This document shows positions 6,674 to 39,644 of a DNA stretch of 64,000 nucleotides, piece by piece. The translations under genes and the position numbers were made by a program. The notes under the pieces are model-generated. The model saw only the letters and a list, made by a program, of their open reading frames with translations. It did not search any database and was not told the DNA's origin. Where the stretch lies: contig JAUJOY010000003.1 of assembly GCA_030447385.1 (NCBI GenBank), positions 77,362-141,361 of the forward strand, given 5' to 3'. Within the stretch, counting starts at the first letter, position 1. The number at the start of each line of letters is the position of its first letter. This DNA comes from Mycobacteriales bacterium. Lineage in GTDB: Bacteria; Actinomycetota; Actinomycetes; Mycobacteriales; SCTD01.

Positions 6674-7048
6674 ATGGCGGTGCTCCGCACGCTGCTGGGT
6701 GAGGCCCTGCGCACCAACCGGCTGAGCCAGGAGCGCACCCTGCGCGAGGTCTCCTCTGCGGCCCAGGTCAGCCTCGGCTACCTCTCCGAGGTCGAGCGGG
6801 GGCAGAAGGAGGCCTCCTCCGAGCTGCTCGCCAGCATCTGCCGAGCCCTCGGGGTGCGGCTGTCCGACGTCCTGCGGGAGGTCAGCGAGAGCCTGTCCGC
6901 CCTCGAGCCGCTGCCCGCCCCGGTGCGTGTGCCCGACACGATCCCGGCCGACCTGCCGACGCTCGAGACGGTCGGCGCGCCTGCGCAGGAGCCGGCCAGC
7001 CTGCACGGCCCGTCGGCGAGGCTGCACGTGCGCAACGTCGCCGCCTGA
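6674..7048 (+). CDS. clgR: XRE-family HTH regulator, ClgR-like
   Basis: HTH segment [50 protein letters not shown], with a GAGGAGG RBS upstream. Lies in a pgsA-cinA-(clgR)-pspA context, as in Mycobacterium Rv2745c/Rv2744c. Confidence 0.75.
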
Positions 7049-7061
7049 GCGCACCCCACCA

Positions 7062-7128
7062 GCGCCGATCATGGCGTTGTTGCTCGTCTGCTGAGCGTGG
7101 TGGTGTGCGCGTGTTCTGTGATCAGCGG
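7062..7128. repeat. Degenerate third copy of the 67-nt palindromic intergenic repeat (see 37689-37771 and 38311-38390)
   Basis: GCGCCGATCATGGCGTTGTTGC...CTGAGCG...TGATCAGCGG aligns without gaps over 67 nt with the copy at 38324-38390. The GATCATGG, TGAGCG and TGATCAG blocks sit at identical offsets. Overall identity is about two thirds by hand count. Confidence 0.4.
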
Positions 7129-7189
7129 AGGTTGGGGCCCGCCGCGTGCGAGCATCGGGACGCGGGGTCCGGGAGAGGGAGACGCGCAG

Positions 7190-36239: not shown

Positions 36240-37709
36240 ATGACGGCTGGTGCACACCAGGACGCGCGGCCCAGGAGCTACGAGGTCCGCACGTACGGGT
36301 GTCAGATGAACGTCCACGACTCCGAGCGCATCCGGGGGCTGCTGGACGCGGCCGGCTACCAGCCGGCGCAGCCTGACGCGGAGCCCGACCTGATCGTGTT
36401 CAACACCTGCGCGGTACGAGAGAACGCCGACAACCGGCTCTACGGCAACCTCGGTCACCTCAAGCCGGTCAAGGACCGCAGGCCCGGGATGCAGATCGCC
36501 GTCGGCGGCTGCCTGGCGCAGAAGGACCAGAGCCTCGTCACGACCCGCGCTCCGTGGGTCGACGTCGTGTTCGGCACGCACAACGTCGGGGCGCTGCCGG
36601 TCCTGCTCGAGCGGGCGCGCATCGAGCAGGAGAGCCAGGTCGAGCTGCTCGAAGCCCTCGAGGTGTTCCCGAGCACCCTGCCCGCGCGGCGCGAGAGCAG
36701 CTACTCCGCCTGGGTGTCGATCAGTGTGGGCTGCGACAACACGTGCACCTTCTGCATCGTCCCGTCGCTGCGCGGCAAGGAGAAGGACCGCGCCCCCGAC
36801 GACATCCTGCGCGAGGTCGAGATGCTCGCCGCCCAGGGTGTGCTCGAGGTGACCCTCCTGGGGCAGAACGTCAACTCCTACGGCCGCGAGTTCGGCGAGC
36901 GGCACGCCTTCGGTGAGCTGCTGCGCCAGGTGGGCGGGCTCGTGGAGCGGGTCCGCTTCACCAGCCCGCACCCGCGTGACTTCACCGACGACGTCATCGC
37001 GGCGATGGCCCGGACACCCGCGGTGTGCCCGAGCCTGCACATGCCGCTGCAGTCGGGCAGCGACGCGGTGCTGCGGGCGATGCGCCGCTCCTACCGCAGC
37101 GAGCGCTTCCTCGGCATCCTGGCCCGCGTCCGCGAGCAGATCCCCGACGCCGCCATCACCACCGACGTCATCGTCGGGTTCCCCGGCGAGACCGAGGCCG
37201 ACTTCGAGAACACCCTGCGCGTCGTGCAGGCCAGCCGCTTCGCCGGCGCGTTCACCTTCCAGTACTCCCCCCGTCCAGGCACGCCGGCCGCCGACCTGGC
37301 TCCGCTGCCCTTCGCCGTGGTCCAGGAGCGCTACGAGCGCCTGGTGGCGCTGCAGGACCGGATCACCTACGAGGGGATGCAGGCCCAGGTGGGCCGGAGC
37401 GTCGAGGTGCTGGTCAGCCAGGGAGAGGGCCGCAAGGACGCGGCCGGCCGGCTGACCGGACGCGCCCGCGACAACCGGCTGGTCCACCTGGCGGCCGCGG
37501 CGGGCGTACGCCCTGGTGACGTGGTCGAGACCGTCGTCACCCGGGCGGGCCCGCACTACCTGGTTGCGGAGGGGCCGCTGCTGTCGCACCGGCGGACCGC
37601 CGCCGGCGACGCCTCCGCGGCCGGTCGGCGCCCGGTCACCACCGGGGTCAGCCTCGGCATGCCGTCCGTGGGAGCACCACCCCCACCCGCAGCCGCACCC
37701 CTGCGCTGA
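36240..37709 (+). CDS. miaB: tRNA-i6A37 methylthiotransferase MiaB
   Basis: [18 protein letters not shown]-terminal cluster, radical-SAM [11 protein letters not shown], and a TRAM domain. ATG at 36240. The stop codon TGA (37707-37709) lies inside the left arm of the palindromic repeat. Confidence 0.95.
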
Positions 37710-37771
37710 TCATGGAGTTGGTGCCCACCTCCTGAGCGTGCCGGGCGGGCAACACCTGCATGATCAGCCGG
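37689..37771. repeat. Palindromic intergenic repeat, copy A, between convergent miaB and GNAT
   Basis: GCAGCCGCACCCCTGCGCTGATCATGGAGTTGGTGCCCACCTCCTGAGCGTGCCGGGCGGGCAACACCTGCATGATCAGCCGG. Arms TGATCATGGAGTTG (37707-37720) and CACCTGCATGATCA (37753-37766) pair at 12 of 14 positions. About 85% identical to copy B with two small indels. The arms contain the stop codons of both flanking genes. Confidence 0.6.
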
Positions 37772-38285
37772 GGTGCCAGTCGCTCGCCAGCACCGCCAGA
37801 AGGACCACGTCGTCGTAGCGCCCCTCCACCCACGCGTGCTCGCACAGCCGGCCCTCCTCGACGAACCCGACCGCGCGGTAGCAGCGCAGCGCGGCCTGAT
37901 GGGAGGCCAGCGTCTGCAGGTGCACCCGGCGAAGGTTGCGGGTGCGGAAGGCGTAGCCCAGCAGCACCCTCAGCACGTCCCGGCCGTACCCCTTGTCCCG
38001 TTCCCCCGGCAGCAGGTTCAGCCCCACCTCCGCGCTGCGGGCAAGGGTGTCCACTCGGAACAGGCTGGCAGCGCCCACGAGTGCCTCGTCGACCTCCACC
38101 GCGAAGTCAGCCGCGCCCGGCTCGCCCGGCTCCGCCCGCCGCGTCCGATAGGCCTCGAGCGTCTCCGGCACCAGCGGCGCCTCCGTTGTCCGCGCCCACG
38201 TCAGCGGGTCGAGCCGCGCGCGCCACAGCGGCTCGGCGTCCTCAGGTCGCAGCGGTCGCAGCCGGACGCGGTTCCCCACGAGCAC
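37764..38285 (-). CDS. GNAT family N-acetyltransferase (RimJ/RimL-like)
   Basis: 173 aa: LVGNRVRLRPLRPEDAEPLW..., the acetyl-CoA binding region GERDKGYGRDVLRVLLGYAF, and LRRVHLQTLASHQAALRCYRAVGFVEEG. Confidence 0.8.
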   Translation of the reverse strand: MLVGNRVRLRPLRPEDAEPLWRARLDPLTWARTTEAPLVPETLEAYRTRRAEPGEPGAADFAVEVDEALVGAASLFRVDTLARSAEVGLNLLPGERDKGYGRDVLRVLLGYAFRTRNLRRVHLQTLASHQAALRCYRAVGFVEEGRLCEHAWVEGRYDDVVLLAVLASDWHPG

Positions 38286-38310
38286 GTGCGGACCCTACGC
38301 CTGGCGAGGT

Positions 38311-38390
38311 GCAGCCGCACCCTGCGCTGATCATGGAGTTGGTGCGCACCTCCTGAGCGCGCGGGTGAGCAACAACTCCATGATCAGTGG
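38311..38390. repeat. Palindromic intergenic repeat, copy B, between the GNAT start and the next + strand gene
   Basis: GCAGCCGCACCCTGCGCTGATCATGGAGTTGGTGCGCACCTCCTGAGCGCGCGGGTGAGCAACAACTCCATGATCAGTGG. It has a perfect 14-bp inverted repeat, TGATCATGGAGTTG (38328-38341) with CAACTCCATGATCA (38373-38386), extendable to 17 of 18, and a 31-nt loop. Confidence 0.6.
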
Positions 38391-38490
38391 CGGTGTTCGG
38401 CGGAGGACCGCGTCGGCGTTCCTTATACTTGTCGGTGTCCCACTGACCCGCAGACGAGCCAGCGGGCACGGGCATGCGGAGGTCACACCG

Positions 38491-38793
38491 ATGGCGAAGC
38501 CGGAGGACGTCGCGGCGGTGCGCGAGGCTGTCCGCGCGCTGGACAAGGCCGTCTCCGTCCTCACGGGGCACTACCCCGAGTCCGTGGACGCGCGCCGGCT
38601 GCAGGTCGGGTGCAGCCGAGTACGCGAGGACCTCGACCTGCTCTGCGGGGCCGAGGACGCCGCCCCCGAGCCGTCCGCTCCGCCGGATCCGCCACCCCAG
38701 CGGATGATCATCGCGGACACCCCCTACGCGCACGACTTCTGGATGGATGCCGAGGACGAGGGCCTCGGCCGGGCGGACTACCGCAAGCGCTAG
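38491..38793 (+). CDS. Hypothetical protein (about 100 aa, acidic)
   Basis: ATG at 38491 preceded by a GGAGG RBS. Translation MAKPEDVAAVREAVRALDKAV...DFWMDAEDEGLGRADYRKR, with GC3-rich codon usage. No motif recognised. The track start at 38365 lies inside the repeat. Confidence 0.45.
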   Translation: MAKPEDVAAVREAVRALDKAVSVLTGHYPESVDARRLQVGCSRVREDLDLLCGAEDAAPEPSAPPDPPPQRMIIADTPYAHDFWMDAEDEGLGRADYRKR

Positions 38794-38846
38794 CCGCGGC
38801 CCGCCTCTCCTTCGACGTCAGGACCCCGCACGATGACCTCTGCACG

Positions 38847-39644
38847 ATGACCGCCGTCGCCCCTGCCGGCACCGGCGCCGACGGCCGGCCCCGGCTTGCT
38901 GCGCGGACGCTGCGCACCGACCGGTGGTGGCTCCAGCCGCTGCTGACGGTTGCGGCCCTCGTCGCGTTCATCGTCTACTCGACGGTGCGCGCGTTCGAGA
39001 ACGCGCACTACTTCGCCGAGCCCTACATCTCCCCGTTCTACTCGCCCTGCCTGACCACCTCGTGCGAGGGCGACACCTTCCCCGAGCTGTTCAGCGGACC
39101 GTCGTTCCTCTCGCCGGCCCTCTACATCCTGATCGTGCCGCTGGGCTTCCGGCTCACCTGCTACTACTACCGCAAGGCCTACTACCGCTCGTTCTGGCTG
39201 TCGCCGCCCGCGTGTGCCGTGGCCGAGCCGCACCGCTCCTACACGGGTGAGACGCGCTTCCCGCTGGTCTTCCAGAACCTGCACCGCTACTTCTTCTACG
39301 CCGGCCTGGCGTTCAACGCGGTCCTCACCTACGACGCCGTCCTCGCCTTCCGCAACAGCGAGGGTGAGTGGTTCCACATGGGCGTCGGCACCCTCGTGCT
39401 CCTGACCAACGCCGCGCTCCTGTGGCTCTACTCGCTGTCGTGCCACTCCTGCCGGCACATCGTCGGTGGCCGCCTGGTGCACTTCTCCAGGCACCCGATC
39501 CGCTACCGCGCCTGGACGTTCGTCTCCAGGCTCAACGGCAAGCACATGCAGCTCGCGTGGGTGAGCCTGGTCTTCGTGGCGTTCACCGACTTCTACGTAC
39601 GCCTGCTCGCGACCGGTGCGCTCGACGACCCCCGGTTCTTCTGA
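38847..39644 (+). CDS. Succinate dehydrogenase/fumarate reductase membrane anchor (Rv0249c-type, Cys-rich polytopic)
   Basis: Five or so TM helices with conserved Cys/His (SPCLTTSCEG and LSCHSCRHIVGG). TGATG overlap with the downstream flavoprotein gene. Gene order anchor-flavoprotein-FeS matches mycobacterial Sdh1. Confidence 0.7.
   Translation: MTAVAPAGTGADGRPRLAARTLRTDRWWLQPLLTVAALVAFIVYSTVRAFENAHYFAEPYISPFYSPCLTTSCEGDTFPELFSGPSFLSPALYILIVPLGFRLTCYYYRKAYYRSFWLSPPACAVAEPHRSYTGETRFPLVFQNLHRYFFYAGLAFNAVLTYDAVLAFRNSEGEWFHMGVGTLVLLTNAALLWLYSLSCHSCRHIVGGRLVHFSRHPIRYRAWTFVSRLNGKHMQLAWVSLVFVAFTDFYVRLLATGALDDPRFF

Follow-up and report, generated by a model that had tools for sequence, protein, structure and literature searches.

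How does a single acetyltransferase gene come to lie between two copies of the same palindrome just downstream of miaB? The question is raised by a stretch of 64,000 nucleotides from a Mycobacteriales bacterium (assembly GCA_030447385.1, contig JAUJOY010000003.1, positions 77,362 to 141,361 of the forward strand), which is referred to below as the window and from whose first letter all coordinates without a prefix are counted. Here two copies, A and B, of a palindromic element that we call E enclose a gene for a GNAT (RimJ/RimL-like) acetyltransferase. Comparison with related loci, which are designated by numbers with the prefix L, suggests that the gene was brought to miaB from another place in the chromosome and that E was the means by which it came. 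The features concerned are the following.

36240-37709, + strand: miaB (radical SAM methylthiotransferase; Pfam, gene call of 489 amino acids), the left neighbour
37689-37775, + strand: copy A of E, with its core hairpin at 37708-37765 and a 27-bp stem at about 37704-37769 (nhmmer E = 6e-18)
37764-38285, - strand: GNAT (RimJ/RimL-like) acetyltransferase gene, 173 amino acids, the passenger between the copies (PF13302, E = 2.9e-17; PF00583)
38286-38310, - strand: 25 nt upstream of the GNAT gene which, judged by conservation with relatives, arrived with it
38311-38397, + strand: copy B of E, with its core hairpin at 38329-38385 (nhmmer E = 4.5e-18)
38491-38793, + strand: ORF100, a gene for a conserved 100-amino acid protein, the right neighbour (directly downstream of miaB in L173-L177)
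7052-7136, + strand: copy C, a decayed member of the E family (nhmmer E = 6.5e-13)

An earlier examination of the letters alone (the sequence-only reading) had described copies A and B as about 85% identical, co-oriented and enclosing the GNAT gene only, and the repeat search, with the open reading frame and Pfam analyses, confirms all of this. The repeats comprise blocks of 46 nt (37699-37744 and 38320-38365; 93% identity) and 34 nt (37742-37775 and 38362-38395; 79% identity) together with a perfect 12/12 match (37689-37700 and 38311-38322), all of them direct and 620-622 nt apart. Each copy is also, as had been noticed, an imperfect palindrome, with inverted arms of 25 nt in copy A (37705-37729/37744-37768; 84% complementarity) and of 24 nt in copy B (38327-38350/38364-38387; 92%); copy B has perfect 14-nt arms, TGATCATGGAGTTG/CAACTCCATGATCA, around a spacer of 31 nt. 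Folding, which had been proposed as a check, gave strong hairpins in A and B both as RNA (-45.8 and -47.8 kcal/mol; z = -3.0 and -4.7) and as DNA (z = -2.8 and -5.3), with a single long hairpin formed on either strand. The 18-mer CTGATCATGGAGTTGGTG from the left arm, allowing up to three mismatches, has five matches in the window against 0.02 expected. Through a low-stringency match at 7065 it led to copy C, the third in the 64-kb window, which has the same orientation as A and B and lies directly 3' of the stop codon of a gene for a ClgR-like helix-turn-helix protein (6674-7048). Its right arm is degenerate and the canonical hairpin no longer forms.

The left 17 nt of copy A are the final codons of miaB and the palindrome starts after them. 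The miaB stop codon (TGA, 37707-37709) and that of the GNAT gene (TCA on the + strand, 37764-37766) are both within copy A, while copy B is placed, as previously described, between the divergent starts of the GNAT gene (38285) and ORF100 (38491).

The miaB locus and the GNAT gene in relatives

Five related loci (L173-L177) were reached through homologues of ORF100. Two of them, L173 and L174, are close to the window (ORF100 93% identical, miaB about 90% at the DNA level) and contain miaB, one E and ORF100 with no GNAT gene; these are the alleles that the sequence-only reading had proposed to look for downstream of miaB. The left arm of the solo E takes in the miaB tail and its TGA stop, as it does in copy A, and on the right the solo E shares its flank (...TATACTTG...CCCACTGACC...ATGGCGAAG) with copy B. 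The outgroups L175, L176 and L177 have ORF100 directly after miaB with neither E nor GNAT. GNAT orthologues with 70-75% identity are found in a different setting, PFK-GNAT-Rv2179c-like-AsnB, in four of four relatives with long contigs (L005, L006, L167 and L168). From the sister alleles that have a solo E and no GNAT, together with the orthologues at the PFK locus, the gene at miaB is a derived relocation to an E site, the alternative allele being a single E. The suggestion that a small palindromic repeat had mediated or accompanied the insertion of the GNAT gene is supported by these two sets of loci.

The segment between the copies, about 545 bp in reverse orientation, consists of the GNAT gene and 25 nt upstream only. 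When the window is compared with the PFK-locus copies the similarity starts at TAGGGTCCGCnCGTG (a -10-like hexamer 6 nt before the GTG) and ends at ...TGG nnn nCC GGC TGA, and because both ends are conserved the segment can be regarded as the same gene with tight borders. Since the ...GGC TGA end is common to the PFK-locus copies, the GNAT stop is ancestral to the gene; the statement that E supplies this codon was thus correct as to its position in copy A and not as to its origin, the orthologue in L167 having the same ending. The stop codon overlaps E through a junction microhomology, TCAGC(C)GGGG(A)TG, which joins the end of the GNAT gene to the right flank of E. At the other border the -10-like TAGGGT (38292-38297, - strand) precedes the GNAT GTG start by 6 nt, and TAGGGTCCGC(A/C)CGTG is conserved in the window, in L007 and in two of the copies at the PFK locus, those of L168 and L005, which suggests a leaderless GNAT transcript whose minimal promoter moved with the gene.

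The original locus of the gene shows some traces of E as well. In L017 (3267-3351) a solo E takes the exact place, between the Rv2179c-like gene and PFK, that the GNAT gene has in relatives, and in L167 (250-332) an E lies just downstream of PFK. These two cases hint that the home locus of the GNAT gene also holds E.

The junctions at miaB carry further information. To the left of copy B, 17 nt (GCAGCCGCACCC-TGCGC) are a second copy of the miaB tail that lies left of copy A. Because this tail differs from the solo-E alleles at four positions, the duplication is lineage-specific and includes host sequence. The left half of copy A is closest to copy B (one difference in 16; the next family member has three), and its right half resembles B no more than it does random family members (rank 8 of 57) and has a CTGCATG variant also seen at other loci. 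The right half of copy B differs from the solo E by one base.

Taken together, we consider it probable, with some reserve, that E provided a portable stretch of homology and a fragile, hairpin-forming site for ectopic copying of the GNAT gene; the likeliest mechanism is that E copies recombined with one another or that synthesis switched templates between them. A break or stalled replication fork at the resident E would have been repaired by copying from another E adjoining a GNAT gene. The gene would have been copied in reverse orientation, and synthesis would then have switched back to a point upstream of the resident E, leaving E_A (resident left half and foreign right half), GNAT, and E_B (a full resident copy with a duplicated miaB tail). 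Such an A/B pair could collapse later, by loss of copy A in L007 and perhaps by excisions that gave the solo-E alleles. An alternative is an E-GNAT circle that integrated by a crossover in E and was followed by gene conversion of the flanks. Since E-gene-E is the regular layout, in relatives, of a DUF559 gene for a predicted nuclease (described below), this enzyme may cut E and so trigger such events, a prediction which the layout makes more likely without proving it and which we hold only tentatively.

L007, the GNAT of which is 90% identical, has kept copy B, whereas a stretch of about 100 bp between CAGCC(G) repeats, with copy A in it, has been lost. Both stop codons are gone in this locus (L007:528-690), miaB and the GNAT gene overlap convergently by about 160 nt, and the latter is called as 209 amino acids. 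The locus was considered as a clean empty site for copy A and rejected as such. Because a conserved C-terminal tryptophan of the GNAT family has been lost and the window-specific GCAG junction kept, L007 represents a secondary deletion.

Several points weigh against ectopic copying through E as described here. The solo E may show the site as it was before the insertion or may have arisen when A and B recombined, either direction of change being possible, and the trichotomy of the window, L007 and L173/L174, which are about equidistant (90.6, 90.0 and 87.3% identity), is not rootable with informative sites of 5/4/2. Simple decay, and not a foreign origin, could account for the divergence of copy A in its right arm. 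In none of the relatives found is the GNAT gene of the PFK locus bracketed by E; the donor locus in the source genome was not seen, and the cases in L017 and L167 are suggestive only. Exact-pattern matches number one to two per GTDB genome, which makes the copy number of E look low, and there is no DUF559 gene in the 64-kb window. The single-E, E-GNAT-E and partial-loss states are all connected through E, and natural relatives display all three: one repeat without the gene, repeat-gene-repeat, and later partial loss.

To the right of copy B, ORF100 is the first gene of a succinate dehydrogenase-like cluster and has no match to any protein family. The sequence TATACTTG...CCCACTGACC upstream of it (38405-38460), immediately right of copy B, is conserved with L173/L174 and probably constitutes the promoter region of ORF100 and the cluster. 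A terminator-like stem followed by CGTTCCTTAT (38397-38416, + strand; one match against 0.1 expected) starts on the last base of copy B, upstream of ORF100, where a terminator makes little sense. Two stop codons fall within the repeats, which lie upstream of the promoter region of ORF100 and the cluster and therefore matter for annotation and for the expression of miaB, the GNAT gene and the succinate dehydrogenase-like cluster.

Extent and anatomy of the E family

The family counts given here rest on loci gathered from genome and metagenome scans, of which the metagenome part gives lower bounds. When 185,579 species genomes were scanned with a structure-aware pattern there were 36 matches, mostly due to chance, and the true ones were all in Frankiales, Mycobacteriales or Actinomycetota metagenome-assembled genomes (MAGs). 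The same kind of pattern scan of the JGI metagenomes gave at least 120 loci, and a family profile (nhmmer) at least 121 elements in at least 97 loci. During the first metagenome pass every family member among the matches listed was in actinobacterial sequence of 70-77% G+C. Viral contigs yielded three pattern matches and not one true family member. A search of Rfam with the window region and three related loci recovered no family, only chance-level matches to mir-4868 (E = 5) and MIR2950 (30 bits against a gathering score of 76). The further copies that the sequence-only reading called for do exist, a third one in the window itself and over 100 among metagenomes and MAGs of related bacteria; the E family is apparently undescribed and is scattered through high-GC soil actinobacteria (Frankiales/Mycobacteriales MAGs).

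The anatomy of the element was derived from an alignment of 58 distinct copies. At the core of E is a hairpin about 58 nt long, the stem of which has 27 bp; C-rich left and G-rich right stretches extend the element to a total of about 85-95 nt. The basal stem, GATCATGGAG/CTCCATGATC, is conserved, with CGCY before and RGCG after it, and GATCATGG...CCATGATC is invariant in the alignment. The middle of the stem is variable with compensatory changes, the apical loop is again invariant (CTGAGCGTG; CTGAGCG(TG)), and either strand reads GTTG in its 5' arm and CAAC in its 3' arm. Conserved outer arms (CGCYGATCATGGAG/CTCCATGATCRGCG) show that terminal inverted repeats are present. Beyond these, the flanks of the 58 copies have only their C-rich/G-rich composition in common and show no copy-specific direct repeat or pairing; copy A is flanked on both sides by the 6-bp direct repeat CAGCCG.

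RNAalifold on a MAFFT alignment returned the invariant basal stem alone, owing to register shifts, and was replaced by anchored counting of the arms and a 27-bp structure given by hand. With this stem imposed on the 58 copies 81% of cells are paired as against 75.5% in shuffled sequences (none of 500 reached 81%), and sliding the partners reduces the pairing to 31-46%. Double changes occur at 17 of the 27 stem pairs, and there are 112 compensatory cells where 61.6 would be expected. An alignment-free count anchored on the basal stem agrees, position 15, for example, being T:A in 21 copies and G:C in 19. Because the pairing exceeds that of the shuffles and compensatory changes are present, a hairpin or cruciform is maintained, the sequence being compatible with a role at the DNA or at the RNA level.

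E copies are almost always intergenic, and many have a stop codon within 10-30 nt. By crude gene calls, 32 of 48 scorable copies have the orientation of the upstream gene and 16 are antisense to it; in eight instances E is antisense to the genes on both sides. At six loci two or three copies follow one another in tandem, only 10-60 nt apart (L082:10356-10529, L094:877-1179, L160:1760-1918, L050:6248-6455, L125:13131-13265 and L117:3534-3687).

Three other candidates were set aside. The sequence GCCGCCTGA, which precedes several copies, does not mark a shared upstream gene, the flanking genes being unrelated; a short open reading frame within the hairpin (ATG...TGA, seven codons) is conserved neither in frame nor in length; and the enrichment of TGATCA in the window is unremarkable once E is set apart.

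Endonuclease genes between E copies, and other explanations

Among the loci found through E, a gene for a DUF559/REase_MTES_1575 protein of about 290 amino acids recurs just downstream of the element and co-oriented with it (L014, L116, L139, L056, L096 and L104; frameshifted in L037), with E on both sides of it in L014, L116, L139 and L056. For an unbiased test 438 DUF559 homologues (E < 1e-20) were collected and three independent loci on long contigs were picked by the protein alone; in all three the gene lies between two direct, co-oriented copies of E. The units whose borders were defined are these.

L169:2875-3982 (L169/L170): E-DUF559-E between purC and purS, picked by protein alone
L171:2918-4010: E-DUF559-E between tsaD and rimI, picked by protein alone
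L172:141-1238: E-DUF559-E next to rpmE, picked by protein alone
L116:300-1385 and L014:5536-6544: E-DUF559-E units found through E

The units are about 1.1 kb in length and are inserted between housekeeping genes. The position between purC and purS recurs in five loci, and in L101 the gene is absent from this position. Within a unit both E copies have variants in common that are peculiar to that unit, such as the compensated GCAG/CTGC pair in both copies of L172, and among the matches listed solo E is about eight times commoner than the E-DUF559-E unit.

The AlphaFold 2 model of the DUF559 protein (pLDDT 93) has an AbiEi-like N-terminal part and a C-terminal nuclease-like domain. A sequence search of the PDB with this protein gave nothing, and a fold search was used instead: the best solved match to the C-terminal domain in Foldseek is the catalytic domain of the homing endonuclease I-Bth0305I (3r3p; TM 0.80, rmsd 3.0 Å), followed by Vsr (1cw0). 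Residues E187, D218 and H236 are invariant and D245 is nearly so (at least 90%) in 40 homologues, with a spacing of 31/18/9 as compared to 26/17/9 for the EDxHD residues of I-Bth0305I (PMC3239194). The gene that E brackets in relatives is accordingly predicted from the model to encode an AbiEi-like winged helix-turn-helix (wHTH) domain fused to a Vsr/EDxHD-type endonuclease. PADLOC found weak AbiEi matches only and no known defence system, and plasmids contained no homologue of the protein. Our literature search found no description of DUF559 genes flanked by hairpin repeats, nor of a matching actinobacterial element of the repetitive extragenic palindromic (REP) or MITE (miniature inverted-repeat transposable element) type.

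A number of observations on these units should be recorded. L037 (2461-3837) has the frameshifted DUF559 gene at purC/purS, and there purS and the second E run opposite to purC and purL, as if a segment had been inverted with one breakpoint at E. Between the endonuclease unit and rpmE, L172:1337-1386 resembles the L31-Actinobacteria ribosomal leader with a score close to the threshold (31.8 bits; gathering score 35), and in contig P0200 L31 and the endonuclease are called as one fused gene. Most contigs carrying DUF559 are only 1.0-1.4 kb, approximately one E-gene-E unit; assemblies could break at the hairpins, or the unit could be multi-copy.

These results lend themselves to an enzyme-driven explanation, according to which the DUF559 endonuclease would recognise and cleave E, the E-DUF559-E unit would be selfish and homing-like, inserting copies of itself at solo E sites, and other genes between two E copies, such as GNAT, would be moved likewise. 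The layout speaks for it, having been found at all three protein-picked loci and at four or more loci reached through E, as does the insertion between purC and purS, between tsaD and rimI, and upstream of rpmE, as is the habit of free-standing homing endonuclease genes. The likeness of the C-terminal domain to I-Bth0305I and Vsr with conserved E-D-H-D residues at comparable spacing, the unit-specific variants shared by the E copies, and the excess of solo E point in the same direction. Against this, the window is without the gene, and the duplicated miaB tail is more readily explained by a single template switch than by a precise site-specific reaction. The DUF559 copies at purC/purS are, moreover, as diverged (65%) as those at different loci, so that the gene is perhaps an old resident and not an active invader. 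We regard this explanation of the GNAT cassette as possible and worth keeping in mind, though unlikely. Much the same standing is given to the broader proposal that E and the AbiEi-like/EDxHD-type endonuclease form an undescribed chromosomal mobile system which targets a dispersed hairpin repeat and not a unique gene sequence. Were it true, the nuclease could spread to any solo E and any gene between two E copies would become a movable single-gene cassette.

It is rather improbable that E acts mainly at the RNA level, as a terminator, an RNA-stabilising 3' hairpin or a regulatory hairpin that both flanking units need, with the GNAT gene incidental. The hairpin is strong and its stem is kept intact by compensatory changes, many copies follow a stop codon by 10-30 nt, and the upstream gene is co-oriented in the 32 of 48 scorable cases; actinobacterial terminators, in addition, are often without a U-tract. 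However, about a third of the copies are antisense to the upstream gene and the eight mentioned above to both neighbours, copy B stands between divergent starts, and Rfam has no match. Copy A might, in the sequence-only reading, double as a bidirectional terminator; neither A nor B is followed by a T-tract. An intrinsic-terminator scan of 37000-39000 found no site at either copy, its only match (38397-38416) being essentially downstream of B. Tandem arrays and the fixed E-DUF559-E layout are unexpected for a terminator, and the conservation of basal stem and loop sequence across loci implies common descent or protein recognition and not stem strength alone.

Still less credit is due to two independent MITE insertions beside a resident GNAT gene, with a transposase acting in trans, or to a MITE-flanked composite inserted whole. 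The arms of the palindrome do resemble terminal inverted repeats, CAGCCG flanks copy A as a direct repeat, and MITE-flanked genes are known, e.g. blaPER-1 and integrons in Acinetobacter (PMC10969869). Both a resident GNAT and a composite entering an E-free site are ruled out, because there is a single-E allele without GNAT whose flanks are the left one of A and the right one of B. The outgroups also have no GNAT here, the duplicated unit includes miaB sequence that is not part of the element, and about 1 Mb of loci contained no transposase that goes with the family. That the likeness is due to chance or to conserved coding sequence, without an independent element, can be dismissed almost entirely, since only some 17 nt of the repeat, the end of miaB, are coding, copy B is non-coding, five matches stand against 0.02 expected, and more than 100 family members occur at unrelated loci.

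Comparison with known systems

Template switching of the microhomology-mediated break-induced replication (MMBIR) and fork stalling and template switching (FoSTeS) type is a general mutational mechanism. It resembles the events at miaB in that an ectopic segment was copied inverted, with microhomology at the junction and a duplication around a hairpin-forming site, but it leaves the conservation of E, its dispersal and its bracketing of DUF559 genes unexplained.

The attC sites of integrons are imperfect palindromes of 60-140 nt which fold as hairpins and contain RYYYAAC...GTTRRRY. At miaB, too, a single promoter-poor gene is bounded by hairpin palindromes and a two-site cassette alternates with a lone site. 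E differs in reading GTTG...CAAC on both strands and in the absence of arrays of different gene cassettes, and neither an intI integrase nor attI was found in the gene table of the window or in the related loci.

The E-bracketed gene of the relatives may be compared with the EDxHD homing endonucleases represented by I-Bth0305I (PMC3239194), with which its C-terminal domain shares the fold and the E-D-H-D spacing; the location between conserved housekeeping genes is similar and a pseudopalindromic target is plausible. The N-terminal domain, on the other hand, is AbiEi-like and not NUMOD, the host is a bacterial chromosome and not a phage intron or intein, and flanking by a dispersed hairpin repeat has not been described for these enzymes. 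The comparison concerns the units of the relatives, the window being without the gene.

In Acinetobacter, blaPER-1 or class 1 integrons are found between two MITE copies (PMC10969869). There, as at miaB, one or a few genes lie between two small non-autonomous palindromic repeats, an arrangement that has been read as a means of movement. The MITE units, however, insert as composites and leave target-site duplications, whereas the alternative allele here is a single E and not an empty site, and the duplication includes host sequence. E has no known parent insertion sequence (IS) or transposase, DUF559 being the only gene that recurs between its copies.

A further parallel is with the REP and REPIN elements and their RAYT genes, reportedly described by Nunvar and co-workers in 2010 and by Bertels and Rainey in 2011. 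The likeness extends to short imperfect intergenic palindromes near gene ends, to one gene that is regularly flanked by the repeat and far outnumbered by solo copies, and to a stem preserved by compensatory change. The E-flanked gene, however, encodes an AbiEi-like wHTH and a Vsr/EDxHD-type nuclease and not a Y1/HUH (IS200/IS605-like) transposase, and no Y1 transposase appears in any gene table of the window or the related loci. Furthermore, the E copies that flank it are direct and not inverted, the hairpin is much longer (27 bp) with a conserved loop, and the copy number is apparently low. REP sequences run to tens or hundreds of copies per genome; for E there are three copies in the 64-kb window and one to two exact-pattern matches per GTDB genome. 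The description of the element as MITE/REP-like in the sequence-only reading is therefore apt as an analogy and does not hold as a classification, there being neither transposase nor RAYT and the associated gene being for a Vsr/EDxHD-like endonuclease.

E works like REP/RAYT elements or MITE-flanked cassettes while belonging to neither, and it is neither an attC site nor a canonical terminator. The combination of a palindromic repeat with gene capture is familiar; the class of the partner enzyme and the relation between a single-E and a filled site have, as far as we could find, no described precedent. The miaB locus may be taken as a sequence-level example of a dispersed palindromic repeat relocating a single housekeeping-type gene in actinobacterial chromosomes. 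If the nuclease acts on the repeat, this would be a new route of gene mobility and the enzyme a candidate sequence-specific or structure-specific nuclease. As a repeat family linked to a Vsr/EDxHD-type endonuclease gene, E provides a parallel to REP/RAYT with a different class of enzyme.

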